Below are positions 7,168-47,650 of a DNA stretch of 64,000 nucleotides, piece by piece (the stretch's first letter is position 1; each line of letters begins with the position of its first letter). Source of the stretch: an uncultured bacterium (GTDB lineage: Bacteria; Chlamydiota; Chlamydiia; Chlamydiales; FEN-1388); NCBI GenBank assembly GCA_964409235.1, contig CAYPCN010000002.1, positions 6,036-70,035 of the forward strand, given 5' to 3'. The notes beneath the pieces are model-generated. The model was not told the origin of the DNA. It saw nothing but the letters and a program-made list of their open reading frames with translations, and did not search any database. The position numbers were made by a program, and so were the translations under genes.

Positions 7168-7322
7168 AGCGCCAGGCTCCGTATCCATGCACCTAATAAT
7201 CTTTTATACGTCCATACTCTGCTCCATCAAAGGAATCAAGAGTGACAAATCCGTCTGAACACGCCTACATGTTCACAACTCTATCTACGAATCGGGGAGG
7301 AAAGCAGGGAAGTGGAGCAGAT

Positions 7323-32917: not shown

Positions 32918-32933
32918 GGGGAGCTCTCCGATC

Positions 32934-34295
32934 TTAGATAGTAAATGCCGCTTGCAGCGCCCTCGTGTCCGAAGACAGATGGTGCGCCACAAATGCGGTG
33001 TAAAATTCAACGATGAGTTTGAAGCATCGGTTGATGACAGGATCGAGGGCCAGCGGTACAAGATCGGGACGCGCCGTTCGCATCCGTCCCTCATCCGAAC
33101 ACAGATGGCATAGCAGGGCGTCGCTCGTTGCCGGAGACATCCCGCGGACCAACAGGAGCAGCTCTATACAATGCTGTTTCCACGCCTCAAGTCCACCAGC
33201 AGACACCCCTTCAATGGCATGGCCGTCGGCGACGACTATATCATCGACACAGACCTTCTCACCAGCACGCAACATCCTGTGCTCAATAGTACGCGACTCG
33301 CCGATGGGAGCAACAGCTGTCTCCATTCTCATGACGTGGCCACCGGGCAGCAGCTCTTCTTTCACACAACACGGCGTCCCGTCATCTAAGAGGACTTCTC
33401 TGATCCTCACCCTCTTGTCCCCGCCAACATTCACGATCACCTCTGTCAGCTGGGGCTCTCGGAGGGTCAGCTCTCGTTCGCACAGCTGGAAGGTCTCGCA
33501 CACCGTTCGATAGGTAGCTCGATACAGTACGGCAAGGAAGGCGGTGGTCATATCCTCTACTTCATCTTGCGTGTAGAGACCTGCGTGGCAGACAGCGAGA
33601 GCCTCGCGATGGATGTTTGAGGTCAGCTTCGCTTGGAACACCTCGAGAATCGGATGCGGAACCTGAACAGCACGATTAAATTCTTCCACCACCAGGGCAA
33701 GTTCATCCGCCAGTGCCTGACCTTCTTCTGGCGCCCAGATGTCGTTATAGAATGTCAGTGTTGAAATCGTTCCATGCCGTGCTTCAACAGAATCAATTCG
33801 TCGCAGGACTCTGTCTACAATGTTCGTCCGCCATCGCAGCTCGTTGATACGAGAGGTCAGCATATCTAACGGAGGAGGCAGGATGCCAATTATGGGAAAT
33901 TGTGCTCGGTAGAGAAGCCCTAAGAACAGCAAAAACCGATGAACTCTCAAAACACCATATGTCAATTCTGGAGAAACGACTCCTGCCAAAGAACTGAAAA
34001 AGCGAAGGGCCATCACGGCTACACAAAGGGCTGTGGCAATCGCCATGCGCACGAATGAATTGCACGACAACCGCTCCGCAAAGGGGATGACTATAATTTT
34101 TATCACGCGCTTCAGAGATAAGAGAAAGACATCTGCAGTTGCCTTTGCACAGGCCGCCAAGCTACAGAGACGAGCGCCAACAAGACAGGCGATAGCTTCA
34201 AGCTTAGGGGGAACGCGTGGTGCTGTGATCGCCTCTTTTGCCTCCGTGCACATTTGCATACTGACAGCTTGCATCTCATACACGGCAATAGTCAT
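32934..34295 (-). CDS. Inc-like membrane protein, paralog 2
   Basis: IATALCVAVMALRFFSSLAGVVSPELTYGVLRVHRFLLFLGLLY, plus the C-terminus RPDLVPLALDPVINRCFKLIVEFYTAFVAHH. The ATG at 34295 is preceded by GGAGGG. Alternative starts at 34319 and 34325 lie inside the repeat TIR. Confidence 0.7.
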   Translation of the reverse strand: MTIAVYEMQAVSMQMCTEAKEAITAPRVPPKLEAIACLVGARLCSLAACAKATADVFLLSLKRVIKIIVIPFAERLSCNSFVRMAIATALCVAVMALRFFSSLAGVVSPELTYGVLRVHRFLLFLGLLYRAQFPIIGILPPPLDMLTSRINELRWRTNIVDRVLRRIDSVEARHGTISTLTFYNDIWAPEEGQALADELALVVEEFNRAVQVPHPILEVFQAKLTSNIHREALAVCHAGLYTQDEVEDMTTAFLAVLYRATYRTVCETFQLCERELTLREPQLTEVIVNVGGDKRVRIREVLLDDGTPCCVKEELLPGGHVMRMETAVAPIGESRTIEHRMLRAGEKVCVDDIVVADGHAIEGVSAGGLEAWKQHCIELLLLVRGMSPATSDALLCHLCSDEGRMRTARPDLVPLALDPVINRCFKLIVEFYTAFVAHHLSSDTRALQAAFTI

Positions 34296-34312
34296 CGCTT
34301 TCCCTCCAGCTA

Positions 34313-34447
34313 GAGCCATTTGCAATGCGCCTTTTGGAAGATGGAGTTGAATCTATCCAGAACTTCCTCACCCGTATGTCAGGGGTGAGGTAGCTCGATC
34401 CAAAAATCTCTCACCTCTCCTCTAAAAATCCGCATCGCAAATGGCTC
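34313..34447. repeat. Full-length TIR repeat element (about 135 bp)
   Basis: The left arm GAGCCATTTGCAATGCGCCTTTT and the right arm AAAAATCCGCATCGCAAATGGCTC are inverted. The interior (GAATCTATCCAGAACTTCCTCACCCGTATGTCAGGGG...GATCCAAAAATCTC) matches the reverse complement of 36704-36843. Confidence 0.75.
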
Positions 34448-34604: not shown

Positions 34605-36245
34605 CTACGCCGTGACCGCCTGTCTCTTCTGCTCAGACCGTACTTCCTGCTCTAGGCGGCCCACATCACACCCATCATAGTCCACAAACTGAAAAAACCG
34701 CTCAAAATGAGGGATGGCGTCGCATACGCTGCGCGCCATTTGCTGCGCCACAATCCGATAGCAGATATGGCCGGCGCTCTGTGATCGCAACTCAGTCAGC
34801 CATTGCAGCGCTCGCAGGTTGAGGGTCAAATACCAGCGAATGTTGTAGGCCATGGGAACGAGATACTGCGCCTCTTCAGGAAGTTCCGTAGAAATGATAT
34901 CGAACGCAGCTTTCGCACCCTCCATAGCAGCATGGTACTCTTTTTCCAGACCGCTTTCTACGAGCTCCTTGGGAGTAAAATAGCCATAATTGCACGTAAG
35001 GAGTTGTCGCTCCTGCGTCAGGACGCGATGGCGTTGCAAATCGCGATAGGCTCCAAAATCCGCAACTACTTCAAAGGTAAAGAACGCGTTTTCCAATGCT
35101 CTCGGAGACTTGTTACGCCGCATTTCACGATGCGCACAGGCAGCATCTAGAATCTTGCCCAGTTCTTCCTCAGGAAGCGCTCGGCAGTACTCTACAAGCG
35201 CAGCCATTCCAACATCGCAATCCTGATACAAGAGCGCAGCAGCGACCTTTACCACCGCCTCTGGATCATGAGCAAGAAGGCGGACGGAAGGCGAGGAGAG
35301 ATTCTTCTCGTCGTGCGGGACATTGGCCGCCAGTGCTTGAAGATCGGCGCGCATGGCCTCTTGGAATTGCGCGTACTGCACATGGGTTTTGTGGTGAGTC
35401 TCCGCCCTTCGAACAAAAGAGGGGATCACTTTCGCTAACTCCTCGTACGATGCCCGGCCGATCTCGCACAGCTCGGAGAGATTCTGGACCTGCAGCTTAT
35501 GCAAGAGCCCCTCATAAAAGCGGCCGTTGCCGAAAAGGCCAATATTCGTCAGCGTCGATGCTGGGAGCAGCCCTCTGACGCAATCCAAGACCTTCGCACG
35601 AATGGCAGCCGTATACGCATTGGTCGACACGTCGGGATCCTTTGGATAGCGTATCGTCATGAAGGTGGTCAGCGGTGGAATGAGCCGTGAATAGGTGTCA
35701 AACAGCATGTTACAGGTGTTGATATACAATGATTTCCATGCTGACGTCATGAGAACCGGTTCGCGATGGAACAGGTACTCGCCGTGCACCTTCTGATCAA
35801 AATAGATGTACCGTGTGGACTTTTCGAGCGGCGAACCACCAAGGCGACACTCTTCAATGGCCTTTGCTGCGATCATCGAGACATTTTCAATAGCTAAATG
35901 AGCGCCACCAAGCTCGCCTATGGAGTCATCGCCATACCCATCTAAAATGCGATCATAAAATTTTTGAGCCTTTTGTATCGCCGAAAGCTGTTCTTCAGGT
36001 CGCCTCTCACAGCCGACGTCTCTGGCATCTTCAAGGCCGGACTCCTCTTGATTGAAAAGGAACTCGCGTAAGAGCAGTGCCCGTAAGCCCAATGTCGATC
36101 TAGAATAGCGAGAGAAAAGCGCGCCTTTAACGACCTCGGGGAGATTGTAGAGAGCAAAGATAGGGCGTTTTGTATTGGTCACAAAATGGCCTAACAGCGC
36201 CTCCTGTTCAGGCGTGAACTCGTCAAACGATTGGGTCATACACAT
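34605..36245 (-). CDS. thyX: FAD-dependent thymidylate synthase ThyX (long, chlamydial-type)
   Basis: ThyX motif region YRDLQRHRVLTQ. The 546-aa length is comparable to Chlamydia ThyX, from memory about 530 aa. Confidence 0.75.
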   Translation of the reverse strand: MCMTQSFDEFTPEQEALLGHFVTNTKRPIFALYNLPEVVKGALFSRYSRSTLGLRALLLREFLFNQEESGLEDARDVGCERRPEEQLSAIQKAQKFYDRILDGYGDDSIGELGGAHLAIENVSMIAAKAIEECRLGGSPLEKSTRYIYFDQKVHGEYLFHREPVLMTSAWKSLYINTCNMLFDTYSRLIPPLTTFMTIRYPKDPDVSTNAYTAAIRAKVLDCVRGLLPASTLTNIGLFGNGRFYEGLLHKLQVQNLSELCEIGRASYEELAKVIPSFVRRAETHHKTHVQYAQFQEAMRADLQALAANVPHDEKNLSSPSVRLLAHDPEAVVKVAAALLYQDCDVGMAALVEYCRALPEEELGKILDAACAHREMRRNKSPRALENAFFTFEVVADFGAYRDLQRHRVLTQERQLLTCNYGYFTPKELVESGLEKEYHAAMEGAKAAFDIISTELPEEAQYLVPMAYNIRWYLTLNLRALQWLTELRSQSAGHICYRIVAQQMARSVCDAIPHFERFFQFVDYDGCDVGRLEQEVRSEQKRQAVTA

Positions 36246-36865: not shown

Positions 36866-37873
36866 TCAAGGAGGCAACAAACCGACAGGGCGGGCCTGCG
36901 GAAAGCGCTGAAAAACGGCTGCTGCGTCTTTATTGAGGAACAGTAGCTTGAGATTCGGGCCAGCATCCATCGTACAATAGAGCTCTACCCCTTCTCTTCG
37001 AGCCTGCCATACGGCGTTCATAGCGGCCACGGTCTCCTCGCGCCAGTAGCAGATGGGTGGGGAAGCCGTCAACATGGAGGCGTGCATCATCAACGCATTG
37101 CGTTCGACCGTTTGCCCAAAATGCGAGAAATTCCGATCGTTGATGCTCTGCGTAATCGATGCGATATCCTTTGCGACCTGCTCTGGCCAGAGCGTATACA
37201 TCGGCGATGTTTCCACAGACCGACGCATCGCCTCGCGGGAGGAGATCGGCTTTTCGTCCGACGAGAGCATGAGAACAGCGAGGGTAAGCTCAGGCCACCA
37301 GCCCTCATACGGAATTGCATACGAATCACACCCATCTGCCAACACGCCCTTTTGCCATAGGACAAAGCCGGGGTAGAGAGAACGACACGCACTACCACTG
37401 CCAAGGCGGGCAAGGCAGGAAAGCGCTCGGCGGTCGCATCGCCAGCCGAAGAACTGGTTCAACGCCAGCGTGAGAGCAGCAAATCCTGACGCAGAAGATG
37501 CGAGTCCCGCAGCCGTAGGAATCGCATTGGTCGTCGACACAGAGAAGGCAAACGAAGGCGTTGGACGAAAGAGATCGAGGAACTGCACGCACCGCCGGTA
37601 AAAGGAAGAGTCGCGCGACATAGGTTGTGAGTTGGCGACCACCTCATCATGCGATAGAGCCTGGCGCACCGTTGTCGTCGTGTGAAGATCGAGAGCAACA
37701 GAGAAGCTGTCCGTCACGGGCAGGTGTAGCTCTTCGTCGCGTTTCCCCCAGTATTTTGCGAGAGCGATATTCACAGGGGCTGACGCTGTAGAGGCATCGA
37801 CAACAGGAGCCCATGATGGCGGGAGAAGACGGGCGGCCGCTTCTTGTTGGCGCGCTATGGAGGACATACGCAA
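36866..37873 (-). CDS. mvaD: Diphosphomevalonate decarboxylase
   Basis: APVNIALAKYWGKRD, AAGLASSASGFAAL and GSGSACRS are GHMP-type motifs typical of MVD. Confidence 0.88.
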   Translation of the reverse strand: MRMSSIARQQEAAARLLPPSWAPVVDASTASAPVNIALAKYWGKRDEELHLPVTDSFSVALDLHTTTTVRQALSHDEVVANSQPMSRDSSFYRRCVQFLDLFRPTPSFAFSVSTTNAIPTAAGLASSASGFAALTLALNQFFGWRCDRRALSCLARLGSGSACRSLYPGFVLWQKGVLADGCDSYAIPYEGWWPELTLAVLMLSSDEKPISSREAMRRSVETSPMYTLWPEQVAKDIASITQSINDRNFSHFGQTVERNALMMHASMLTASPPICYWREETVAAMNAVWQARREGVELYCTMDAGPNLKLLFLNKDAAAVFQRFPQARPVGLLPP

Positions 37874-38787
37874 ACCTCAACACCGGTTGTTGCTACCGCC
37901 GAAGGAAGCCGTTTGCCAATCCCTGCTTCAGGAAATGCCCCCAAGCCTACAACAGCATCGCCTAATCCAGAGCCCGAGATCTTGGCGCCGTAGATGGTAG
38001 GAGCGCTGCGCAGAGCCCAGCAAAGAGCTGACAGCTCGGGCGTCCCTACGCCAAGGGCTTCCATCAGGCCATGGGCATGATTCATCAGCCTCCCGACGGT
38101 AGTCTCATCGCGAGCCACCAGAGCATCAATGGCGGCAGAGGTGACGTCATTGAGCGCCGAAAAAAGCGCTTGATACACCTTTGGTTGCTGTTGTTCCCAT
38201 CTTCTGACACAACGGATGACCTCCGGCGTTGGCGTTTTTTTTCCCGAATAGAGGAAAACAAGTGGCAGTTCGGACAGGAGAGGGGAGACAGCGATTTCAT
38301 CAGCGCGATAGCTGATCACGCCGCCATAGATGCTTGCAGCAGCATCAGCGCCTGAGCCATACCCCTGCACATTCCGGATCACCGTACAGCAGTCACGAAG
38401 CAGGGCCTGGTTGTCGTACGAGCCTCGTATCCATGTCGTCAACGCTGCCATAAGTGCGACAGTAACCGCCGCCGACGAGGCCAACCCAACGGTGGGGTCA
38501 ATGGCTGAGGAAATAGCAACGTGCACTCCCGATGGCAATCGGCCGTTCAGCAGGCGGAAAACGCCCTCTACAAACCGCAGATTAGTACCGAGACAAGGGT
38601 TGTCGAGCGTTGCCGTGACAGTACCAAAGGCAGAGCAAACGTCGATCATGGTGTCGGAGCGAGGGGTGATGGTCACTGATAGGCGGCAGTCAATGGCCGC
38701 GGCAATGGCATGGCCTCCTCGAAGGACGGCATGCTCCCCGAAGAGCATGGCGCTGCCTGGGGCGCTAGCGACAATTGACTGTGGCAC
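37855..38787 (-). CDS. GHMP-family kinase, probable phosphomevalonate kinase (assignment against mevalonate kinase uncertain)
   Basis: [16 protein letters not shown] and the GHMP ATP motif [16 protein letters not shown] start overlapping the upstream gene by 23 nt. Confidence 0.7.
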
Positions 38788-39817
38788 CGGTCACATCCCC
38801 TTCTAATCGGAAACAAGAATACCCGTACCTCTCGCAGAGCGTCATCGGTGGAACGTCATCGGCGACGAGGACAATGCCTCCCGCCTCTCCTCGAACCGCG
38901 CCGGCACCGCAGATCTTGGCCGCTCCACCGTTCGCTTCGACAGCACGGATGAACGAGGCGACGCGCTGCGGCACAACGCCAATTTTCATGAGGAGATGGT
39001 GGTTGTGTGTAATAGCATCTCTCATGGCTTTGGCATTCTGCGCCTGCAGCGATTGCTGTACGTCGTTTGTCACAGCGCCAAATTCCTGCCAAATCGAACT
39101 GGTGGCGTAGTGGCGATTGACGTTGGCAACGCATTCGCCCGTCGTCGTCTGCGGACGGCCAGTATTGACGACCCACAATGAGGATGAGGGAATCTCGAGC
39201 TTTTCAGGCGTTCTCTCTTTCTGAAAGCGAAGGCATCCACCATGGAGGGACACATAGGAATCGACACCACTGGCTTTTCCATGCTGTAGACGTTCGACTT
39301 CTAAGATCTGGCGCTCGATCCACTCCGTGCCCTTCGTAATGCGGAAGAAATGGAGCAGGGCCTGAACAAAGCTGACCGCTGTGGCAGCCGAAGATCCCAT
39401 GCCGCAGCCAATGGGAATCGTGGAGTGGACTTTGATGTCCATGCCATGCTCCATCTCGATGGTGCAGGCATCGATGAAAGACATGAGCGCAAATTGAAAG
39501 ATATCGGCTGGAGTTTGGACGACACTGCGAATGGACAGCTCGCCATTCATGAATTGGTGGTACGCGTGCAGCAACTGATCGCGCACGGTCTTAAGGGTGG
39601 AAGCTGTGACGCGAAGCGTCTTCCGCACATTGCACAGGGTGAACAAGATTCCCAGCCCATCTTTAGCTGTAATCTCTGTCGTAGCAAATCGGGTGACGGC
39701 AAGAGCGATCGCCGGCTGACCATACACAACCGAATGCTCTCCCGAAATAATGACCTTTGCGGGTGCACGGGCTACAATAGCGCTCACATCCTCTCTCGTT
39801 TGATCCTTCAGAGTCAT
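38765..39817 (-). CDS. mvk: Mevalonate kinase (GHMP family)
   Basis: [35 protein letters not shown] and KICGAGA. The likely ATG at 39817 (MTLKDQ) lies inside a repeat-derived sequence; the track start at 39823 is TTG. Confidence 0.78.
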
Positions 39818-39915
39818 TTGCAACGTGGGTTTTTAGAGGAGAAGGGAAAGATTTTTGGTAGATTCGACCAAAAAGATCCTACGCTAGCCTCCAAAAGGCA
39901 CATCGCAAATGGCTC
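39811..39915. repeat. Repeat element whose left arm overlaps the mvk start codon
   Basis: GAGTCATTTGCAACGTGGGTTTTTAGAGGAGAAGGG...CCAAAAGGCACATCGCAAATGGCTC. The interior contains the hairpin GATTTTTGGTAGATTCGACCAAAAAGATC. Confidence 0.7.
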
Positions 39916-40204: not shown

Positions 40205-40684
40205 TTACGATCGTGGGGTGACGCGCGATCGACCTTGGTGGCTGACCATCAGCCATACCTTCTGCCCGACGCCCATCATTGGATCTGGGCCTTGAACAAC
40301 GGTCTTTGACTCACCATTTTCTAGTGCCACGACGTATTCCATGGCATTTTGAGTTTTCAAAGCCTTCTCAGCATACGCACCGGCGACAGCACCAGCAACC
40401 GCTCCGCCAACAGTGGCCAGCGTATTCCCCTCGCCCTTGCCAATTTTTGAGCCAAGGTAGGCTCCTCCCACTCCACCGCCAATAATGCCCAGAGGGTTTT
40501 CCTCTAAATATTCCTTGTCTTCAACCGTCACTTGACGCGCACTGATGATCACGCCTGGATAGGTGGATGAAGTTTCTCCAACAGCCGAACCAGAATAGAC
40601 ATTCGAAGAGATTTGGCGCGCACAGCCACCAGCAATCAGGGCGGCCACACAGCCAATGCATACAAGTACTTTAGTATGACTCAT
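40205..40684 (-). CDS. Glycine-zipper (SlyB / 17-kDa-antigen-like) outer-membrane lipoprotein
   Basis: Lipobox MSHTKVLVCIGCVAALIAGGC. Glycine zipper GGGVGGAYLGSKIG...VGGAVAGAVAGAY. AAGGAG RBS before the ATG at 40684. Confidence 0.75.
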   Translation of the reverse strand: MSHTKVLVCIGCVAALIAGGCARQISSNVYSGSAVGETSSTYPGVIISARQVTVEDKEYLEENPLGIIGGGVGGAYLGSKIGKGEGNTLATVGGAVAGAVAGAYAEKALKTQNAMEYVVALENGESKTVVQGPDPMMGVGQKVWLMVSHQGRSRVTPRS

Positions 40685-40729
40685 ACAAAAACTCCTTATT
40701 AGATACGCCATATCTCCCATGGCTTTACA

Positions 40730-41593
40730 TTATAATTTTTTTGCCGTGTTATTTTCCATCGTTGCGCGATACCTTTCTTGGCACGATTTGAAAACAGGCA
40801 TCAGCTCAGGGCATGCAGACTCCAACCAAGATTGGAGAGGTTTCAGCCTATTGAGATCGTGGAGCGTTTGCCTCTTCCGATCTGAGAGCTGGCATAGCTT
40901 CCCTGTATCAAGCAAGGTCGCCTTGCCATCGACGAACCCAACATTGCCATTTCGAATGAGCGACCCATCTCTGTCCACCACCCCCTTCTCTCGGCACACG
41001 GTCAGCAACGTAAACAGAGATTCAAGGCGAGCTGCAGCCTCTTTGACGTTGCGTTCTGCCAGCAAGCGCATGAGCGTTTGTTTGAATGGCTGTGCTTTCT
41101 TTTGGAAGATAAAAGGGACATCCTGCAACGCAATTTTTTCGACCTTGCCTCGTTCCGTTAACACCGTCACAGTGGGTACCTTCAATGAGTGCGGCCCACA
41201 GACACAGGCGACAACGCCTGTTTCTCCCGGCAGCACCGTCCGGGCGAGGACAGCCCCCATCATGTATTCTTCGAGTTGTTTTCGCTTTTTCTTTTTGTCG
41301 GATTTCTTAAAAAGCTTGAGCACGTACTTTCCATCAGATGTCTCATAGGCCACGCACTGTTTCCCTTCGCCCAGGAAAAACAGAGGTTGCCCGAAGAGGG
41401 GCCGAAGGGCATCTAGAGAGACAGCAGGCGCTGTTTCTTTGAAAGTAACGTCCTTGAAATGGCACAGGGAATGCGAAGAGAACAGGCGCGCCTGCCTCGA
41501 TCGGAACTTCTGCCATTTGATCACAGCAAAACAACCCAAGACCGCAAGAAAGAGTATGGTCAGAAAGGCCGCCGGCCGACGTACACATGTCAT
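40730..41593 (-). CDS. Membrane-anchored protein-kinase-fold protein (Kdo/WaaP-like or atypical kinase), paralog 1
   Basis: N-terminal TM segment. Gly-loop LGEGKQCVAYE, Lys in YVLKLF, catalytic-loop-like VVDRDGSLIRNGNVG and DFG-like LLDTG. Aligns with the protein at 44101-45054. Confidence 0.55.
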   Translation of the reverse strand: MTCVRRPAAFLTILFLAVLGCFAVIKWQKFRSRQARLFSSHSLCHFKDVTFKETAPAVSLDALRPLFGQPLFFLGEGKQCVAYETSDGKYVLKLFKKSDKKKKRKQLEEYMMGAVLARTVLPGETGVVACVCGPHSLKVPTVTVLTERGKVEKIALQDVPFIFQKKAQPFKQTLMRLLAERNVKEAAARLESLFTLLTVCREKGVVDRDGSLIRNGNVGFVDGKATLLDTGKLCQLSDRKRQTLHDLNRLKPLQSWLESACPELMPVFKSCQERYRATMENNTAKKL

Positions 41594-41613
41594 AGAGAGA
41601 CTCCTCCATAAAT

Positions 41614-41736
41614 GAGCCCTTCTATGCTATCATCGAGACCGGTATCGGTGCAAGATGGAGAGAGTAGGATCTTTTCGGCCGAATCTACCCAAACCCTCCC
41701 ACTTCTCCTCCTCAAACCCTGCATCGCACATGGCTC
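41614..41736. repeat. Repeat element (internal module inverted relative to the copy at 60347)
   Basis: GGAGAGAGTAGGATCTTTTCGGCCGAATCTACCCAAACCCTCCCACTTCTCCTC matches the reverse complement of 60371-60426. It ends in GCATCGCACATGGCTC. Confidence 0.7.
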
Positions 41737-41796
41737 AACTTGCTCGAAATCTCTCTCTGTGTGAGACTATCTTCGCGTGACAGTTGAGGATTTTGT

Positions 41797-42243
41797 ATGA
41801 TTATCGAGCCGCTTGGCCAAGTACCAAAGTATTTTCCTCTCCATCCTCTCTTCGAGAAGGCATATGAATTTTGCTGCATTGCTGAACGCCATGGCATGCC
41901 AGAAGGAGAGTTTCATATTGAAGGCGATCGGCTCATCGCCATTGTCTCCACAGGAGATAGGGAAGGAGGCTCTCACCTTGAAGCTCACAGGCGCTATATC
42001 GACATGCAATATATCATGAGCGGCACTGACTGCATAGGATGGAGATCGACAGCAACATGCCAAGATATCGTGAGCGCCTACTCAAAAGAACAGGATAACA
42101 TCTTCTTCGGCGATGAGCCTGCCTCTTGGATTGAAATACAAGCCGGCTGCTGCGTTCTTTTGTTCCCAAATGATGCCCATATGTCTCGATATGGAGAGAG
42201 GGCCGGAAAGAAAATTATTCTTAAAATTGGCATCGAACTGTGA
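41797..42243 (+). CDS. YhcH/YjgK/YiaL (DUF386) family protein
   Basis: 148 aa with family-typical features: GEFHIEGDRLIAIV, EAHRRYIDMQYIMSG and FFPNDAH. GAGGA RBS. Confidence 0.75.
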   Translation: MIIEPLGQVPKYFPLHPLFEKAYEFCCIAERHGMPEGEFHIEGDRLIAIVSTGDREGGSHLEAHRRYIDMQYIMSGTDCIGWRSTATCQDIVSAYSKEQDNIFFGDEPASWIEIQAGCCVLLFPNDAHMSRYGERAGKKIILKIGIEL

Positions 42244-44198
42244 AACGACTCGTACAAATCGCGTTTTCCAAGGTAGCATACCGGTACCTTCTTCTCTTCA
42301 CTCTCATCTCTGCCTTAGGCTTTACAATTGCTACACAGCTGAAGATGTTTTCTCTTGGCATCATCACCAGAAAAGGACCAGATGCGTTTGAGCTGTTTGG
42401 GACCGGCCATCGGCCTACCACCATCAGCCATGACCAACTCACAGCGCGATGGCAGGAGTTGGATAAAGCCGGAAAAGGCACGATCGATCGCGATGATGTT
42501 GCCCTCTATATGGAAACCCACCACAAAGAGGGAATTATCGATCGAGGAATCGCCACCATCAGCCGATACTTCCCCTTAGATACAAATATCTGGGCTCTTG
42601 TGAGCGTCATTCTTTCTATCGCCTTCTTTGAAGCCATCACCCTTTTTGCCTACCGCTTTGGCACGAAGATCTTTGCCATCAGAATTGGCAAAGACATTCG
42701 CCAACAATATTTTGAACATATTCAATCGCTACCGATGAGCTTTTATCAGAGTCATAATATCGGTGCGCTTTCATCGCGCGCGGTCAACGATGCGTATATA
42801 ATTGCCGATGGCATTAATTCGATGCTCATCAACTATTTCCAAACCCCCTTTGCGCTTGTCTCGACCTTAGGCCTCTGTTTTGCTATCTCATGGCGCCTGT
42901 CCTGCGTTGTCTTCATTGGGCTGCCCATGTTGATAGGCCCTATTGTCTTTATCGCACGACGTATTCGACGACTTTCCCGGCAATTGCAGAAAAAACAGGA
43001 GGCGTTCGCATCAGTCCTTGTAGAGTTCTTAAGTGGGGTGCAAACCATCAAACTGTTTGCCATGGAGGACTTCTCCCTCAAAAAATACAAAGAAAACAAT
43101 GATGCCATGGCAGCGCTCGAGATCAGAAATGCCCGATATGATATTAGCTCGCGGCCAGTCCTGCACATGATCGCCATGGTCTTCCTCGCCACGACGCTCC
43201 TCTTCGGCCTATGGGGACTTCGCCTACCGCTGCATGAAGTGCTTTTTTTCTGTGGGCTTCTCTCTGCCGTCTATGAGCCCATCAAAAAATTCGCCGAAGA
43301 AAACGGTCGGATTCAACGCGGGGTCGCCGCCTGTGATCGGCTGTACGAAGTCTTAGATCTCCATCCATCGATTCAGGATGAGAAAAATGCTAGAGGGGAG
43401 ATTTCCTTTTCACATGCCGTGACCTTTGAAAACGTCACCTTTGGCTACGGCCAGGATCAGATAGTTCTTTCCTCGGTTTCATTTGAAGTGAAACGGGGAG
43501 AGATGGTCGCGATCGTCGGCCCGACAGGGGGTGGAAAATCCACGATCGTCTCCCTCTTTACCCGTTTGTTTGAGCCCCAAGATGGCGTCATTTCGATTGA
43601 CGGGGTTCCCATCCAACAGATCTCGCAAAAATCGCTGCGTGAATTTTTCGCCGTCGTCCCCCAAAAACCATTTCTCTTCCACGACACCGTTCGAGAGAAC
43701 ATCTGCTTTGGGCGAGCCTTTAGCGATGAAGCCGTGCGCTATGCCGCACGCCAAGCTCATGCTGAAGAGTTTATCTGCGCGCTTCCCCATGGCTATGACA
43801 CCTTCCTTGCTGAGGCTGGGAAGACGCTGTCAGGGGGTCAGCAGCAGCGGTTAGCCATTGCTCGCGCCCTTATCAAACAATCCCCTATCCTCGTGCTCGA
43901 TGAAGCCACGTCAGCACTTGACCCTGCCAGCGAGCTCCAGATAAAACTCGCTCTCAAGGAACTGAAAGGGACGTTTACGCAGATCGTCATTGCTCATCGG
44001 CTGTCAACGATCGAGAACGCCGACCGTATTATCGTGATCGAAGGAGGGAAAAAGGTCGGCGATGGCACTAAAGAAGAACTACTGCAAACATGTCCTACGT
44101 TCAGGCGTCTTTGGATGCCGCATCTGTCTTCATCTCACGATGAAGGAGTTCTTTCTTCTGGATGTAATGAGACCACAGTTCAGGATACGACGCTTTAA
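42240..44198 (+). CDS. ABC transporter permease/ATPase, MsbA-like lipid exporter
   Basis: Six-TM domain followed by Walker A GPTGGGKST, signature LSGGQQQR and Walker B ILVLDEATSALD. GTGA overlap with the yhcH-like stop. Confidence 0.88.
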   Translation: MKRLVQIAFSKVAYRYLLLFTLISALGFTIATQLKMFSLGIITRKGPDAFELFGTGHRPTTISHDQLTARWQELDKAGKGTIDRDDVALYMETHHKEGIIDRGIATISRYFPLDTNIWALVSVILSIAFFEAITLFAYRFGTKIFAIRIGKDIRQQYFEHIQSLPMSFYQSHNIGALSSRAVNDAYIIADGINSMLINYFQTPFALVSTLGLCFAISWRLSCVVFIGLPMLIGPIVFIARRIRRLSRQLQKKQEAFASVLVEFLSGVQTIKLFAMEDFSLKKYKENNDAMAALEIRNARYDISSRPVLHMIAMVFLATTLLFGLWGLRLPLHEVLFFCGLLSAVYEPIKKFAEENGRIQRGVAACDRLYEVLDLHPSIQDEKNARGEISFSHAVTFENVTFGYGQDQIVLSSVSFEVKRGEMVAIVGPTGGGKSTIVSLFTRLFEPQDGVISIDGVPIQQISQKSLREFFAVVPQKPFLFHDTVRENICFGRAFSDEAVRYAARQAHAEEFICALPHGYDTFLAEAGKTLSGGQQQRLAIARALIKQSPILVLDEATSALDPASELQIKLALKELKGTFTQIVIAHRLSTIENADRIIVIEGGKKVGDGTKEELLQTCPTFRRLWMPHLSSSHDEGVLSSGCNETTVQDTTL

Positions 44199-45054
44199 GC
44201 CAGCGTTCGAGCGGCATAAGCCGCAGGTGGGTTTCGTACCGCATCCGCTCCTTGACATCTAGGTTTTTGGCACGGAAGAAATGCCAGGTATCCATATAAA
44301 TAGCCCGGTCTTCAGTACACCCGATATTGTTGTTTGAGATGAGGTTGTCGTCTCCATCGACGAACCCTTTGCGGGCCAGCGATAGCAAGAGCTCGAACAC
44401 TTGATCAACACGTGCTTTTGCCTCGTCGACTTTCCCAGCATCCATAAGCTCAGTGAGACAAAGGATCAGCGGGGTTGCCTTCTTCTGCACGACAAAGCAG
44501 GTGTCATCGCCGCACACACGCTGCGACTGACCGTAACTATCGATTAATTTCAGACCGTGAATCTTTGCTTTCGTCCGGTTTAAGTGGACATAGATCACCC
44601 CTGTCTCTTCCTGCAGTTCATCAAAGCAGACTCTCGAGCTCATGAAGATGTCTTCGAATTTATTCATCTTCTTTCGGCGTGGTGCAGATTTTGTCCACAG
44701 CCGATCAAGCCATCCCTTCTTTTGGACGGGCTGGAAGTTGTTCAGATGAATAAACTTCACAACGTATTTTTCATCTGTGGTGCAGAAGATATACGAATGC
44801 TGCCCCTTGCCCATCCAGCGCAAAGCCTGTTGAGAGACCACGTAAAAAAATCGATCGTGATCTGGCGAAAGGCGTACCTCCCAATCTGCTCGTGAGTCCA
44901 TTGAAGACTCGATATATTTGAGATTGAACAGCCGAGAAGGCCGCGCAATCTGTTCTAATCGCTTGTCGATCATCTGACCCTTGACAATCAAAAAGACCAG
45001 CATGAGCGTGAATATTCCCCCAAACAGCACCTGAGAGAAAGTTTTGATATTCAT
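44101..45054 (-). CDS. Membrane-anchored protein-kinase-fold protein, paralog 2
   Basis: TM segment FGGIFTLMLVFLIV. MGKGQHSYIFC, YVVKFI, FVDGDDNLISNNNIG and YMDTW align with paralog 1. The 3' end overlaps the msbA-like 3' end by 98 nt. Confidence 0.55.
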   Translation of the reverse strand: MNIKTFSQVLFGGIFTLMLVFLIVKGQMIDKRLEQIARPSRLFNLKYIESSMDSRADWEVRLSPDHDRFFYVVSQQALRWMGKGQHSYIFCTTDEKYVVKFIHLNNFQPVQKKGWLDRLWTKSAPRRKKMNKFEDIFMSSRVCFDELQEETGVIYVHLNRTKAKIHGLKLIDSYGQSQRVCGDDTCFVVQKKATPLILCLTELMDAGKVDEAKARVDQVFELLLSLARKGFVDGDDNLISNNNIGCTEDRAIYMDTWHFFRAKNLDVKERMRYETHLRLMPLERWLKASYPELWSHYIQKKELLHREMKTDAASKDA

Positions 45055-45231
45055 ATAGATCACCGCATTCAAAATCGTGGACAAAGCATACTATGTTACA
45101 CTTCTACGATTTTTCGTCCTAGGCTCTCCAAATGGAGTGTTCAACGCAAAGTAAAAATGTCCCATTCTCGAGCAAAATAGCCATCTCAGATACAATACCA
45201 GCATCTAGCAGACGCATGCGATGGAAGCCAT

Positions 45232-46392
45232 ATGAAAAAGCTACTACTTCTCTTTCTGCCCATTCTCCTCCTCGGAGCTATCTCATGGATGATCGAGCTA
45301 TCCCGTGATTCTTCCCTTCATCCTCCAGCCCTTTCCAGACACGTCTTTGATCGCTCCATAGGAATGCGAGCGTTTAGCAAGAGGTTTCTCCTCCACCGTC
45401 CCCTCGATCAACACATCCGCAAGGTCGCTCACCAGCTCATAGCACGCCGAAACAAAGAATGGACCCCAACTGCTGCCTCTTCCATCCCCAAGCACATTCA
45501 TCAATTTTGGTTCTCAGACGACCCTCTGCCCGACGATCTTGCCCGTTCAGTACGGCTGGTCCAGCAGCAGCATCCAGAATTTCAATACACCCTGTGGGGG
45601 TATCAAGAGATACAAGCCCTTTTGCACGAGCTGCTAGGACCTCAAAGTCTATCTCTTCCCCAGGCGATTCTCAGGGACATCGCCGCTGCTGCGGTACTCT
45701 GGAACGACGGAGGCGTGGCCATTGACCTTGAAGCCGAATGCGTCCATCCCATCACTTCCTTGCTGACGCTCGGCGACTGCCTTATTGGCTTTGAACCTCC
45801 GCTTCCAAAGGCACAATGGAAACGAAGGCTGTTTCTTAGTCCTTCTGTTCTTGCTGCACGCCCTCACCATCCTCTCATTCAAGCATATCTTGCTGAAATG
45901 ATCCGCAGAGTACAGAGCGGTCAGGAAGAGCACGAAATGATTGATGCGCAATGGGTGTCAGAAGAAGCTCTGACAGGCGTGGTCGCCAAGCTTGGCTTGG
46001 AGATGGGCGCTCCTCTTCTTCTCGGACCAACGTATTTTTGTCCAGTCAGCCCATCACACATTCGACATCTGAAACGAGTGTTGGACAGGGAGGTGCGGCG
46101 GTCATCAGTGCAAAAAATTCTACAAGCACTTCATATCACGTCAATTCCCGCATACTCTAATGTCACGAGGGAGACAATCTTCGTTCACATGGCAGGAGGC
46201 CGAATGTCCAAAGAGGCACATGTGTACGACCCCATCACTGGGTTGGAAAGGCAAGGCAGCCAAGATGGTATGACGGTCGACGAATCAAGTACCCTCGACC
46301 AGTATCCTACATTAGCCACAGCGACTAGTCGCTTCGAAAAGGAAAGTGAGGCGAAGGAAAAGGTTTTTGAGACAAATGAAGAAAGTTGGTAA
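45232..46392 (+). CDS. DXD-motif glycosyltransferase (GT32 / Gly_transf_sug-like), N-terminal anchor
   Basis: IPKHIHQFWFSDDPLP and GGVAIDLEAE occupy the positions of the family's sugar-binding and DXD motifs. N-terminal hydrophobic segment present. Confidence 0.65.
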   Translation: MKKLLLLFLPILLLGAISWMIELSRDSSLHPPALSRHVFDRSIGMRAFSKRFLLHRPLDQHIRKVAHQLIARRNKEWTPTAASSIPKHIHQFWFSDDPLPDDLARSVRLVQQQHPEFQYTLWGYQEIQALLHELLGPQSLSLPQAILRDIAAAAVLWNDGGVAIDLEAECVHPITSLLTLGDCLIGFEPPLPKAQWKRRLFLSPSVLAARPHHPLIQAYLAEMIRRVQSGQEEHEMIDAQWVSEEALTGVVAKLGLEMGAPLLLGPTYFCPVSPSHIRHLKRVLDREVRRSSVQKILQALHITSIPAYSNVTRETIFVHMAGGRMSKEAHVYDPITGLERQGSQDGMTVDESSTLDQYPTLATATSRFEKESEAKEKVFETNEESW

Positions 46393-46426
46393 TCTTGCGG
46401 AAAAATCTTTTGCAGAAGGGACAACA

Positions 46427-47650
46427 ATGAGAAACGTTGCTTTGAAGAGAGTTTCAGCGGTGTTGCTCAGCCTATGTGCGCTGTGCATTCTTGTCCTCGT
46501 TGGGTGTAAGGAACAAAAAAAGGAGCGGCTTGGATGTTTGGCACCAATCACCGAATTGCCGTTCGACGAGTCAATGGGCAAATCTGAATCAGATTTTCGT
46601 TTTATCTTTGTCAATAGCGACGACGCTGCTCGCTACACCAAAACAAAGACGCTCTATGAAAAAAATCTGCCCTCGAAGGTTGCTCCAGGGCAAAATCCGA
46701 GAATTCCGAAGATCATCCACCAAATTTGGCTTGGCCCCAATCTTCCTCCACCATACTTCGCCGAATTTCAAGCCAAGATCAAAGCTCTCCACCCAGATTG
46801 GGAATACCACCTGTGGAATGAAGCAGAGCTCGAAGAGCTTAAGCTAGAAAACTGGGATATTGTAGAGCGGTCTCCAAATTGGGCAGAAAAATCCGACGTC
46901 ATTCGTTGCGACCTTCTCGACCGTTTCGGCGGTGTCTATATGGATGTCGATATGGATGTCCGGCATTCCTTAAACGAGCTTCATGAAAAGTACCATTTCT
47001 ATGCTGGCATGGAGCACCCTCACAAAATCGCTACCACCAACAATAGGGTGTGGGTTGGAATTTCGATCATGGCGTCATGCCCTGGCCACCCCATCATGAA
47101 AAATTGGAAACGCAGAATCCGCAACTGCTGGGATGAAGTCGACCTTCGCTTTTCATCACCCGTTGAAAGAGTCATCAACCACACATACTTCAACTTCACG
47201 CACGCCTTCATGCAAGAAGTGGACCAGCCGGGATATATCGATATGATTTTCCCAGCGACCTATTTCTACCCCATCTCGCCATCCTACGCCGCCAAACGTC
47301 GCAACAGTGGCCTTAGAGCATGGAGAGAGACGCTGTATGACTTCCTCGAAAAGATCAATCTCAAAAAACCGCGTCCCTTCTCACGCATATACCCAGAGAC
47401 CATTGCCGTGCACTATTGGGGAAATTCTTGGCTTCCTGGAGTGGATGTACAATTGAAAGAACTACAACGGCTTGTTGATTCAGCGCGAAAAGACATGTAC
47501 AAAATGCAGCAAAAAGTTCGCATGATGGAACGTCGCTTGACGGCATCAGAGATCAAAGTTGCTGATATTCTAACGAACCACACCGACAAGAATAAGAAAT
47601 TTCAAGAGCCGGACAGTGAAGAGCTGGCTCCGATTGCAGCGTCCTTCTAG
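46427..47650 (+). CDS. DXD-motif glycosyltransferase (GT32-like), predicted lipoprotein
   Basis: Lipobox LVLVGC. IPKIIHQIWLGPNLPP, SDVIRCDLLDRFGGVYMDVDMD (DXD). C-terminal coiled-coil tail. Confidence 0.72.
   Translation: MRNVALKRVSAVLLSLCALCILVLVGCKEQKKERLGCLAPITELPFDESMGKSESDFRFIFVNSDDAARYTKTKTLYEKNLPSKVAPGQNPRIPKIIHQIWLGPNLPPPYFAEFQAKIKALHPDWEYHLWNEAELEELKLENWDIVERSPNWAEKSDVIRCDLLDRFGGVYMDVDMDVRHSLNELHEKYHFYAGMEHPHKIATTNNRVWVGISIMASCPGHPIMKNWKRRIRNCWDEVDLRFSSPVERVINHTYFNFTHAFMQEVDQPGYIDMIFPATYFYPISPSYAAKRRNSGLRAWRETLYDFLEKINLKKPRPFSRIYPETIAVHYWGNSWLPGVDVQLKELQRLVDSARKDMYKMQQKVRMMERRLTASEIKVADILTNHTDKNKKFQEPDSEELAPIAASF

Follow-up and report, generated by a model that had tools for sequence, protein, structure and literature searches.

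Gene layout and transcription units

All six open reading frames reported by a first-pass annotation are present in the window, a 64,000-nucleotide stretch of a Chlamydiota genome. They encode two kinase-like proteins (K1 and K2), a YhcH/DUF386 protein, an MsbA-like ABC half-transporter (ABC) and two glycosyltransferase-like proteins (GT1 and GT2). A glycine-zipper lipoprotein gene that was absent from the original finding lies 9 nt downstream of K1 and is the seventh gene of the set (Table 1).

Table 1 Features of the neighbourhood, in window positions
Feature	Position	Strand	Evidence
Glycine-zipper lipoprotein (Rick_17kDa_Anti / SlyB-like)	40205..40720	-	PF05433 4.6e-08; lipobox in N-terminus ...ALIAGGC
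K1, N-terminally anchored protein-kinase-like, K1 clade	40730..41593	-	Paralogue of K2; GxG, VLK, DRD...N, DTG
Divergent intergenic region, K1-lipoprotein versus YhcH-ABC units	41594..41796	.	Gene coordinates
YhcH/DUF386 family protein	41797..42243	+	PF04074 7.2e-31
MsbA-like ABC half-transporter (TMD-NBD)	42240..44198	+	PF00664 and PF00005
K2, N-terminally anchored protein-kinase-like	44101..45054	-	Alternative TTG start 45084; AF2 and Foldseek
GT1, divergent GT2 paralogue, N-terminal signal/anchor	45232..46392	+	E 4e-17 to GT2
GT2, lipoprotein GT-A glycosyltransferase, GT32/Och1-like	46427..47650	+	PF04488 1.9e-11; PF05704 1.7e-08

The gene coordinates define four transcription units (K1 to the lipoprotein, YhcH to ABC, K2, and GT1 to GT2), which rules out one operon for all six genes. 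The YhcH stop and the ABC start overlap by 4 nt, and ABC and K2 are convergent, with 3' ends overlapping by 98 nt. Promoters presumably lie in the divergent intergenic region, in which a promoter scan found sites no more numerous than in shuffled sequence. K2, reported as 44101-45084 on the minus strand, likely starts at M11, matching the 317-aa database entry P0001. GT2 is started here at M28, with an alternative GTG start at 46346. The GC content is 0.48-0.51 across the neighbourhood and 0.50-0.56 in its flanks, a comparison that gives no sign of recent horizontal transfer. A gene for a eukaryote-like UCH hydrolase lies nearby in the window.

A chlamydial family of kinase-fold proteins

K1 and K2 are paralogous, with 29% identity across 242 aa (E 2e-29), and the kinase motifs picked out by the first-pass annotation are the conserved columns of their family: among 39 distant members, G94 of the glycine loop, K110 of VxK and D265 of DTG/DTW are invariant, and in the catalytic loop D245 and N253 reach at least 90% conservation. 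The predicted structure of K2 (AF2 pLDDT 92.2) is a minimal protein-kinase-like fold, with Foldseek matches to RIO2, RIO1, WbdD, PRPK (Bud32) and AceK at an E of about 1e-4 and a probability of 1.0. K1 and K2 share with these best structural matches the Gly loop, the beta3 Lys, the catalytic Asp/Asn and the metal-binding Asp, but identities are 8-14% and TM-scores 0.3-0.5, the cellular context differs, and the RIO wing and flexible loop are missing.

The proposed membership in WaaP/KdkA did not hold up. Neither K1 nor K2 matches any Pfam or NCBIfam model, Kdo/WaaP (PF06293) included; a PF06293 search of 39 diverse relatives was equally negative, with one weak PF01163 match as the only Pfam or NCBIfam signal, and no Pfam domain was found among 88 close K2 homologues. 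The WaaP/KdkA kinases are alike in being membrane-associated, with a protein-kinase-like fold that lacks an activation segment, and the proteins here are encoded beside a Kdo/lipid A export operon. However, K1 and K2 carry an N-terminal hydrophobic anchor and belong to a large, undescribed, chlamydia-specific family that is hugely expanded and partly linked to type III secretion system (T3SS) genes. The family numbers at least 2,331 clusters (50% identity), which fall almost only in Chlamydiota, and tandem arrays of up to eight family genes are frequent.

The genes for the closest relatives of K2 are part of the type III secretion operon, flanked by sctS and sctT; the order sctS-K-sctT occurs on one strand in twelve loci, with gaps of about 100-170 nt, and sctT is near a kinase gene in four more. 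In a neighbour-joining (NJ) tree K2 is nested within the sctS-K-sctT clade, and K1, never T3SS-linked, falls in a separate clade. K2 is a recent lineage-specific duplicate of the T3SS-operon copy. This origin and the tandem arrays, both atypical of lipooligosaccharide (LOS) kinases, argue further against the WaaP/KdkA reading, and they are easier to reconcile with host interaction or control of secretion than with LOS chemistry.

K2, like its sctS-K-sctT relatives, might act on or regulate the type III export apparatus independently of the glycosyltransferases and ABC, its position being a relic of an ancestral layout in which the ABC and glycosyltransferase genes bordered the T3SS operon. The twelve loci, the four with sctT close by and the nesting of K2 speak for such a reading, as does one locus (L081) in which ABC, three glycosyltransferase genes and sctT-K-sctS...sctJ stand side by side; the L001 MAG, too, has another member of the clade besides its K2 orthologue, and that copy lies beside suf genes (L002). 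We nevertheless consider this reading unlikely, given that K2 is kept beside GT1-GT2 down to 59% identity (L087, L088) with no T3SS genes near, and that K1 shows no T3SS linkage at all.

Eukaryotic secretory-pathway kinases of the Fam20C type and bacterial CotH may be alike in logic, if in K1 and K2 too the kinase domain follows a signal anchor, beside anchored glycosyltransferases. The Fam20 and CotH Pfam models gave no match to K1 or K2, and neither appeared in the top 50 fold matches.

The exporter operon and the glycosyltransferases

YhcH was correctly named: besides its PF04074 match it scores 60.6 bits against TIGR00022 (cut-off 45.5). It shares this clear DUF386 membership with the N-acetylneuraminate anomerase YhcH/NanQ but falls below the NanQ equivalog (44.5 versus 160 bits), and it is found in a setting of Kdo/lipid A export instead of sialic acid catabolism. 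YhcH has been described as a Neu5Ac anomerase (PMC8141875). Non-chlamydial DUF386 homologues accompany KDG aldolase, PfkB and UxuA.

For ABC, MsbA is the best NCBIfam match, at 396 bits, which bears out the likeness originally proposed, but the equivalog cut-off of 602 bits is missed (also 351/867 bits). The half-transporter architecture is that of the MsbA lipid A flippase, from which ABC differs by a conserved insert of ~70 aa between TM1 and TM2. In three relatives (L083, L084 and L088) the DUF386 gene is followed by the Kdo-8-phosphate phosphatase gene kdsC and then by the MsbA-like exporter, and the KdsC proteins of L083 and L084 score 128-148 bits against a TIGR01670 cut-off of 107; the gene is absent from this window, L085 and L087. 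KdsC in relatives connects the exporter operon with Kdo and with LOS, the latter link having been suggested by the first-pass annotation.

GT2 carries HQIW, an intact DxD (DVD) and, when read from M28, a lipobox (LVGC), in line with the lipoprotein predicted by the first-pass annotation; by its sequence it is a true PF04488 enzyme. Among homologues D173 is invariant, and D175 and the lipobox Cys are each at least 90% conserved. Given this conservation of the Cys, GT2 is almost certainly exported. Its predicted structure (AF2 pLDDT 88) has a long C-terminal helix and matches YeGT (3e-9), Och1 (2e-8; 382 columns, whole length), PaToxG, SetA, Lgt1 and LgtC. Like fungal Och1 and GT32, it passes both PF04488 (Gly_transf_sug) and PF05704 (Caps_synth) and is anchored in the membrane by its N-terminus, its catalytic domain lying almost certainly on the non-cytoplasmic side; unlike them, it is a bacterial lipoprotein. 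The HQIW and DxD motifs first reported for both glycosyltransferases do not extend to GT1, which has HQFW and DLE (DxE) in their place, stays under the PF04488 threshold (13.1 versus 23 bits) and is recognised only via GT2; its orthologues have DVE or DPW at the DxD site. GT2 is 55-63% identical across lineages, on par with ABC and GreA, and single or low copy, which points to a housekeeping-like constraint.

The same structural matches would suit an export of GT1, GT2 and the kinases to the inclusion or host, where they might modify host proteins or lipids, with YhcH-ABC an unrelated housekeeping operon alongside. The predicted GT-A retaining fold of GT2 is that of toxin and effector glycosyltransferases, and the Rho-modifying toxins YeGT and PaToxG rank among its top matches, together with SetA and Lgt1 of Legionella. 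The first-pass alternative of secretory-pathway-like enzymes or effector-like glycosyltransferases may thus still apply, since toxins and fungal Och1 are mixed among these matches. A weak signal for PF12919 (TcdA/TcdB), the arrays of a Chlamydiota-specific kinase family, the T3SS-operon position of the K2 clade and the UCH gene close by point towards a host-directed role. Yet the PF12919 signal stays below threshold (19.5 bits versus 23.6), and GT2 lies outside any toxin and away from T3S or T4S context. Its conservation across distant lineages is unlike that of fast-evolving effectors, its signal is of the Sec/lipoprotein and not the T3S type, non-toxin Och1 matches its whole length, and the adjacency of ABC and glycosyltransferase genes survives rearrangements. 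We regard this host-directed role as improbable.

Classical modification of the LOS core in the cytoplasm, by WaaP/KdkA-type kinases and core glycosyltransferases before MsbA flipping, is very unlikely. The linkage of KdsC with the MsbA-like exporter would agree with it, as would the glycan-terminating kinase WbdD among the fold matches and a strongly positive stretch after the hydrophobic segment of K1 (4.9 K/R in 12 residues), a possible mark of a cytoplasmic domain. However, GT2 as a conserved lipoprotein is extracytoplasmic, which rules it out as an ordinary core glycosyltransferase of the cytoplasm. Lipoprotein or AxA signal peptides occur on some kinase paralogues, PF06293 matches are missing from K1, K2 and 39 relatives, and arrays are not expected for core kinases.

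Conserved gene order and a putative envelope role

The layout K1–lipoprotein | DUF386–(KdsC)–ABC | GT1–GT2 is conserved across distant environmental chlamydiae. The full set of six recurs in L001, L087 and L088, with K2 identity down to 59-63%, and all three blocks recur without K2 in L083, L084 and L085, in which GreA, our yardstick of divergence, is 42-58% identical. This recurrence shows that the arrangement is not due to chance. K1 orthologues (38-71% identity) always adjoin the lipoprotein gene (L083, L084, L085, L087, L088), and GT1 orthologues precede GT2 in L001, L084, L085, L087 and L088. Of the first-pass interpretation, the kinase fold, the synteny in relatives and the LOS link stand, whereas a WaaP/KdkA assignment and ordinary core glycosylation in the cytoplasm are not supported.

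We tentatively favour, at somewhat less than even odds, a cell-envelope biogenesis module of separate but linked transcription units in environmental Chlamydiota. Its Kdo link draws on KdsC, MsbA as the best model of ABC, the neighbours of DUF386 genes and the YhcH anomerase precedent; the synteny, the constraint on GT2, its lipobox and the conserved catalytic residues of the kinases and GT2 argue for the envelope role as a whole. Against it count ABC falling short of the MsbA equivalog cut-off, the missing KdsC here and in L085 and L087, collinearity, the kinase expansion and the T3SS link of the K2 clade. Ordinary bacteria are also not known to have the extracytoplasmic nucleotide-sugar donor that an exported GT-A enzyme needs.

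In such a module, the YhcH-ABC operon would be part of the Kdo/lipid A (LOS) pathway. In relatives, Kdo would be produced from Kdo-8-P by KdsC, and the DUF386 protein probably interconverts anomeric or open forms of Kdo, a 2-keto-3-deoxy sugar acid, much as its relative NanQ acts on sialic acid. Flipping of the finished lipid-linked product, the lipid being a presumed one, across the inner membrane to its outer face would fall to the MsbA-like half-transporter. GT1 and GT2, as putative retaining-type GT-A enzymes, the latter almost certainly and the former by assumption outside the cytoplasm, would glycosylate an exported acceptor with a presumed donor; LOS, another envelope glycolipid or an envelope protein are candidate acceptors. 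K1, probably co-transcribed with the SlyB-like outer-membrane lipoprotein, and K2 may be membrane-tethered minimal kinases that phosphorylate a membrane-proximal substrate, with both substrate and topology conjectural.

Alternatively, adjacency could reflect nothing beyond conserved gene order in this region of the chlamydial chromosome. Ham1 and GreA, functionally unrelated, are equally conserved neighbours, which leaves part of the synteny to collinearity alone; the four transcription units are separate, and the presence of K2, KdsC, an LRR gene and a 415-aa gene varies from genome to genome. That no functional link exists is still quite unlikely: K1 and the lipoprotein gene, and likewise DUF386 and ABC, are tightly coupled, and ABC orthologues (58-82% identity) adjoin GT2-type genes in 9/9 genomes examined despite inversions and differing flanks (L081, L086).

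Locus layout and its conservation in relatives

All six ORFs of the first-pass annotation are found in place (see table) and the cluster itself stands, with two corrections: the motif and family of GT1, one of two paralogous GT-A glycosyltransferases, and the arrangement, which comprises four transcription units instead of one operon. A scan of the locus for promoters and terminators gave sites no more frequent than in shuffled sequence. The convergent genes of ABC, an MsbA-like half-transporter, and K2, one of two anchored kinase-like proteins, share their last 98 nt (44101-44198). Directly downstream of the cluster lies a chlamydia-typical GreA fusion gene (716 aa; NF004969, 802 bits versus a cut-off of 697), and related loci derive almost exclusively from MAGs of Chlamydiia, Chlamydiales or Parachlamydiales; hence, the window belongs to a member of the Chlamydiota. 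GC content dips slightly across the cluster (0.48-0.51 versus 0.50-0.56 in the flanks), and nothing suggests a recent horizontal transfer.

Features of the cluster and of a type III secretion operon example (window positions unless prefixed by a locus)
Feature	Position	Strand	Remarks
Glycine-zipper lipoprotein	40205-40720	-	PF05433; 9 nt downstream of K1
K1	40730-41593	-	Kinase-like; same unit as glycine-zipper lipoprotein
YhcH (DUF386)	41797-42243	+	4-nt overlap with ABC gene
ABC	42240-44198	+	MsbA-like; same unit as YhcH
K2	44101-45054 or 45084	-	Kinase-like; own unit, converges on ABC
GT1	45232-46392	+	Upstream of GT2, same unit
GT2	46427-47650	+	Start is the Met giving the lipoprotein signal
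sctS	L004:7574-7849	same as K	Type III secretion operon example
Kinase K	L004:7956-9044	same as sctS, sctT	Between sctS and sctT
sctT	L004:9218-10096	same as K	Type III secretion operon example

The loci used for synteny were retrieved with GT2; those retrieved with K2 alone showed the cluster in one close relative only. Contrary to the lack of synteny in relatives that the first-pass annotation had allowed for, the layout is whole in two further loci (L087 and L088; K2 identity 59-63%). Three others (L083, on a 1.54-Mb chromosome, L084 and L085) hold lipoprotein-K1, DUF386-(KdsC)-ABC, GT1/GT2 and Ham1-GreA without K2, and in some of them the DUF386-ABC block is inverted. Shorter arrangements consist of ABC, three GT2-type genes and Ham1-GreA (L086), or of ABC, three GT2-type genes and sctT-K-sctS...sctJ (L081); the latter suggests a possible route by which a kinase of the type III secretion (T3SS) clade ended up between the ABC gene and those of the glycosyltransferases. 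A rival explanation for all of this is pure collinearity of neighbouring genes, and part of the synteny is indeed plain collinearity, given that Ham1 and GreA are also conserved neighbours and have no plausible functional tie. ABC adjoins GT2-type genes in nine of the nine genomes examined, through inversions and changed flanks, and GT2 is as conserved in distant genomes (55-63% identity) as ABC (58-67%) and GreA (42-58%). Some relatives carry extra genes: an LRR protein is inserted between K2 and ABC at L088:10938-12086, and a protein of approximately 415 aa without a Pfam match lies between K1 and DUF386 at L085:4925-6172 and L087:15221-16474.

A kinase-like family of the Chlamydiota

K1 and K2 are paralogues (29% identity, E 2e-29) that match no Pfam model at E <= 1 and no NCBIfam model, and sequence and profile searches of PDB sequences with K1, K2 and the family alignment returned noise only. 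The AlphaFold (AF2) model of K2 (alignment of 45 sequences, pLDDT 92.2, pTM 0.82) has a long N-terminal helix (residues 2-46), within which the hydrophobic segment lies, and after it a bilobal kinase fold. Foldseek against the PDB gave 1,012 matches, 31 of them at E <= 1e-3, and the best 50 of the 1,012 are all kinases. The closest folds are RIO2 (3.7e-5, probability 1.0), RIO1, the WbdD kinase domain, PRPK/Bud32 and AceK, all of which are minimal kinases without an activation segment; the best matches have E values of about 1e-4, probability 1.0, TM-scores of 0.3-0.5 and identities of 8-14%. The model and its matches thus bear out the kinase-like fold first proposed for K2 from its motifs, as opposed to a non-kinase fold. 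Over 39 distant family members G94, K110 and D265 are invariant, and the columns of D245, N253, Q86, F197 and Q200 reach a conservation of at least 90%; K1 retains the Gly-rich loop, the beta3 Lys, the catalytic-loop Asp/Asn and the metal-binding Asp. The motif columns picked out at first pass are the conserved columns of the family, and both fold and catalytic residues agree with membership of the protein-kinase-like (PKL) superfamily. Because the catalytic columns are conserved, the proteins of the family are probably active phosphotransferases.

The more specific WaaP/KdkA-like identity did not hold: PF06293 (Kdo/WaaP) is absent from the Pfam matches of K1, K2 and 39 diverse relatives, the latter searched at E <= 0.1. 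Fam20 and CotH models have no Pfam match in the same proteins, and Fam20 and CotH structures are absent from the best 50 of the 1,012 Foldseek matches of K2. RIO1 (PF01163) matches one of the 39 members weakly (E 0.024), the resemblance otherwise being structural only. With no significant family-model match, we rejected membership of WaaP/KdkA, RIO, Fam20 or CotH, and by sequence K1 and K2 appear to be kinase-fold proteins outside every curated family among those tested.

An exhaustive profile search at E <= 1e-3 recovers at least 2,331 sequences, each representing one cluster at 50% identity; 2,068 of them reach E <= 1e-10. This defines a large kinase-like family that has no Pfam or NCBIfam model, is almost confined to the Chlamydiota and has three genomic habits, namely beside an outer-membrane lipoprotein and MsbA-like operon, at the sctS-sctT junction and in tandem arrays. 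Two or more copies occur in 34 of 80 genomic loci and three or more in 16; four loci (L028, L032, L054 and L063) hold eight head-to-tail copies within approximately 7 kb, and arrays of seven are found in L073 and L074. Many array members share an ERFCHxQTxGF motif straight after the short hydrophobic N-terminus.

Beyond its own clade, the closest proteins to K2 (38-56% identity) are encoded inside a T3SS operon, with the order sctJ - unknown - sctL - sctR - sctS - K - sctT on one strand and gaps of approximately 100-170 nt. The sctS-K-sctT arrangement, a trait of many environmental Chlamydiota, is present in 12 loci (L004-L007, L010-L012, L014-L016, L055 and L081), and sctT lies near a kinase gene in four more. 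In other bacteria, adjacency and translational coupling of sctS and sctT are reported to be important for export-gate assembly (bioRxiv 10.64898/2026.02.19.706803). A rough neighbour-joining tree separates K1 orthologues, array and singleton genes, and a T3SS-linked clade in which K2 is nested. The MAG of L001 has a K2 orthologue and a second T3SS-clade copy, which adjoins suf genes (L002); K2 is therefore a lineage-specific duplicate of the T3SS-linked clade. These observations bear on a rival explanation, in which the kinases are T3SS-related and their adjacency to envelope genes is merely a relic; the pairing of K1 with the lipoprotein gene is constant among relatives. In the literature we found no description of the kinase family, the sctS-K-sctT arrangement or chlamydial GT32 enzymes. 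We regard this large, uncurated, Chlamydiota-specific family, together with its T3SS-operon link, as the most interesting element of the locus, followed by the conserved exported glycosyltransferase.

The DUF386-ABC operon and the glycosyltransferases

YhcH belongs to the DUF386 family, as first annotated, with scores above the cut-offs of PF04074 (107.6 bits versus 26.5) and TIGR00022 (60.6 versus 45.5); the NanQ equivalog level is not reached. The MsbA-like label of ABC holds insofar as MsbA is the top-ranked NCBIfam model, but scores under both equivalog cut-offs (TIGR02203, 396 versus 602 bits; PRK11176, 351 versus 867 bits) led us to reject ABC as an MsbA equivalog. An insert of approximately 70 aa between TM1 and TM2 (window 42375-42590, residues ~46-117) is conserved in eight orthologues and, given this position, is probably periplasmic; it includes a weak EF-hand-like stretch, ELDKAGKGTIDRDD (PF13499, E 0.22).

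In relatives with a DUF386-KdsC-ABC operon (L083:8520-9606, L084:7417-8526 and L088:14062-15083), a HAD phosphatase gene lies between DUF386 and ABC, and in L083 and L084 its product exceeds the subfamily cut-off of the Kdo-8-phosphate phosphatase KdsC (128-148 versus 107 bits). No KdsC gene was found within the 64-kb window. KdsC in the operon of these three loci supports a putative role of ABC in lipid A-core flipping. The YhcH homologue search on which our narrow context survey is based returned 11 proteins only. The gene of a non-chlamydial homologue sits with KDG aldolase, PfkB kinase and UxuA, and YhcH of E. coli acts as a Neu5Ac anomerase (PMC8141875), so the DUF386 family recurs in connection with 2-keto-3-deoxy sugar acids, the class of compounds to which Kdo belongs. 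From the KdsC linkage, MsbA as best model and these sugar-acid ties, we infer that the DUF386-(KdsC)-ABC operon would serve Kdo supply and Kdo-lipid export. Given the operon in relatives, the DUF386 protein could supply CMP-Kdo synthesis by acting as a Kdo anomerase or mutarotase; Kdo anomerase is a concrete role that is cheap to test.

The initial description of two GT32-like transferases with DXD motifs applies to GT2 but not to GT1. GT2 passes PF04488 (44.9 bits versus a cut-off of 23), also matches PF05704 and has 298 homologues, many at 50-70% identity. HQIW and D173 do not vary, and the column of D175 is conserved to at least 90% (D173-V-D175 being the DxD). GT1, a paralogue that has diverged from GT2 (24% identity, E 4e-17), stays below the PF04488 threshold (13.1 bits versus 23), and the DxD position is degenerate in GT1-type proteins (DLE in GT1, DVE or DPW in orthologues); GT1 may work as a variant enzyme or, without catalysis of its own, as a partner protein. 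In the GT2 model (pLDDT 88) a long C-terminal helix comes after a GT-A fold, and its best Foldseek matches are YeGT (3e-9), fungal Och1 (2e-8; 9n3s, 382 columns), PaToxG, SetA, LgtC, Lgt1 and TcdA/B. Similarity to the Och1 fold is the basis of a putative assignment to CAZy family GT32 and of a putative retaining mechanism. A rival explanation sees the glycosyltransferases or kinases as host-directed toxins or effectors. Because toxin and Och1 matches are mixed, structure alone does not separate the glycolipid module from the secretory-pathway or Legionella-effector-like enzymes that the first-pass annotation had weighed; the clostridial-toxin model PF12919 stays below its cut-off in GT2 (19.5 versus 23.6 bits) and covers only residues 172-203 around the DxD.

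The N-terminal hydrophobic stretch of GT2 is closed by the lipobox LVGC (Cys27), in a Cys column that is at least 90% conserved. Of 114 homologues, 62 fit a strict PS51257-like pattern, and on visual inspection G/A/S-Cys stands at this point in nearly every full-length homologue. The n-region, h-region and a lipobox Cys kept in orthologues are those of an SPase II substrate and predict lipidation. Given the conserved Cys, GT2 is almost certainly a lipoprotein outside the cytoplasm, in line with the predicted lipoprotein noted at first pass.

Possible roles at the chlamydial envelope

In most kinase-family members the N-terminus is short and basic and leads into a hydrophobic run of 15-20 residues. 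Five paralogues (P0133, P0148, P0149, P0152 and P0220) have textbook lipoprotein signal peptides and one (P0092) an AxA-type signal peptide, which suggests that the kinase domain can function outside the cytoplasm. The positive-inside rule does not discriminate the orientation of K1 and K2, given that the exported control, the GT2 lipoprotein family, has the same bias (more K/R after the hydrophobic segment in 63 of 99). In K1 the stretch behind the anchor is unusually basic, a possible sign of a cytoplasmic domain. Topology evidence thus appears weaker for K1 and K2 than the lipobox evidence for GT2.

The best-supported reading, which we hold tentatively, is an envelope biogenesis neighbourhood of a Kdo/lipid export operon, glycosyltransferases with export signals and membrane-tethered, chlamydia-specific kinases. 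The operon would export lipid, GT2, whose export is well supported, and GT1, whose export is assumed, would act on the exported acceptor, and K1 and K2 would be tethered kinases, K2 having been recently recruited from the T3SS-linked branch. The components are of known kinds (kinase-like, GT-A, ABC and DUF386 proteins). The lipooligosaccharide (LOS) or glycolipid module of the first-pass annotation is in this way partly supported, by the KdsC-linked operon, and partly not, as the kinases fall outside WaaP/KdkA; the same findings bear on the rival in which a WaaP-type modification of the core takes place, as in the classical case, in the cytoplasm. Little is known about the envelope glycolipids of environmental chlamydiae, and the locus is a candidate for their difference from those of Chlamydia.

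As an exported GT-A enzyme, GT2 would require a nucleotide-sugar donor outside the cytoplasm. Host ATP must cross the chlamydial periplasm to reach the nucleotide transporters. UDP-glucose reaches the inclusion lumen of C. trachomatis (PMC4829429), and an extracytoplasmic donor is conceivable in chlamydiae. On these grounds a further reading, which we consider rather unlikely, is that the kinases and glycosyltransferases act extracytoplasmically with host ATP and nucleotide sugars, decorating exported LOS or envelope proteins, with one kinase branch wired into the T3SS operon. The GT2 lipoprotein, the N-terminal signal or anchor of GT1 and the lipoprotein or cleavable signal peptides of some kinase paralogues argue for it. 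It would draw on ATP and nucleotide sugars that an intracellular energy parasite, unlike free-living bacteria, has available in its periplasm or in the inclusion lumen, and, if true, would make the system of the window a bacterial equivalent of the kinases and glycosyltransferases of the eukaryotic secretory pathway. An exported nucleotide-sugar-type glycosyltransferase conserved in a housekeeping-like manner is hard to explain without usable donors outside the chlamydial cytoplasm, and the conservation of GT2 makes a specific idea on parasitic envelope biochemistry testable.

Elsewhere in the window, three mevalonate-pathway-type genes (36866-39823; one resembling diphosphomevalonate decarboxylase and two encoding GHMP kinases) represent a pathway unusual in chlamydiae, in which the MEP route is the normal one. 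A eukaryote-like ubiquitin C-terminal hydrolase (29483-31111; PF00443, 2.7e-24), a candidate host-directed deubiquitinase, is followed by two large ORFs without a Pfam match (31277-34325). A very long ORF of at least 2,396 aa (1-7188, minus strand) continues beyond the window edge. ThyX (34605-36245; 546 aa) has two matched stretches, the best at residues 323-513, so that the protein has either a long extra N-terminal part or an internally duplicated one.
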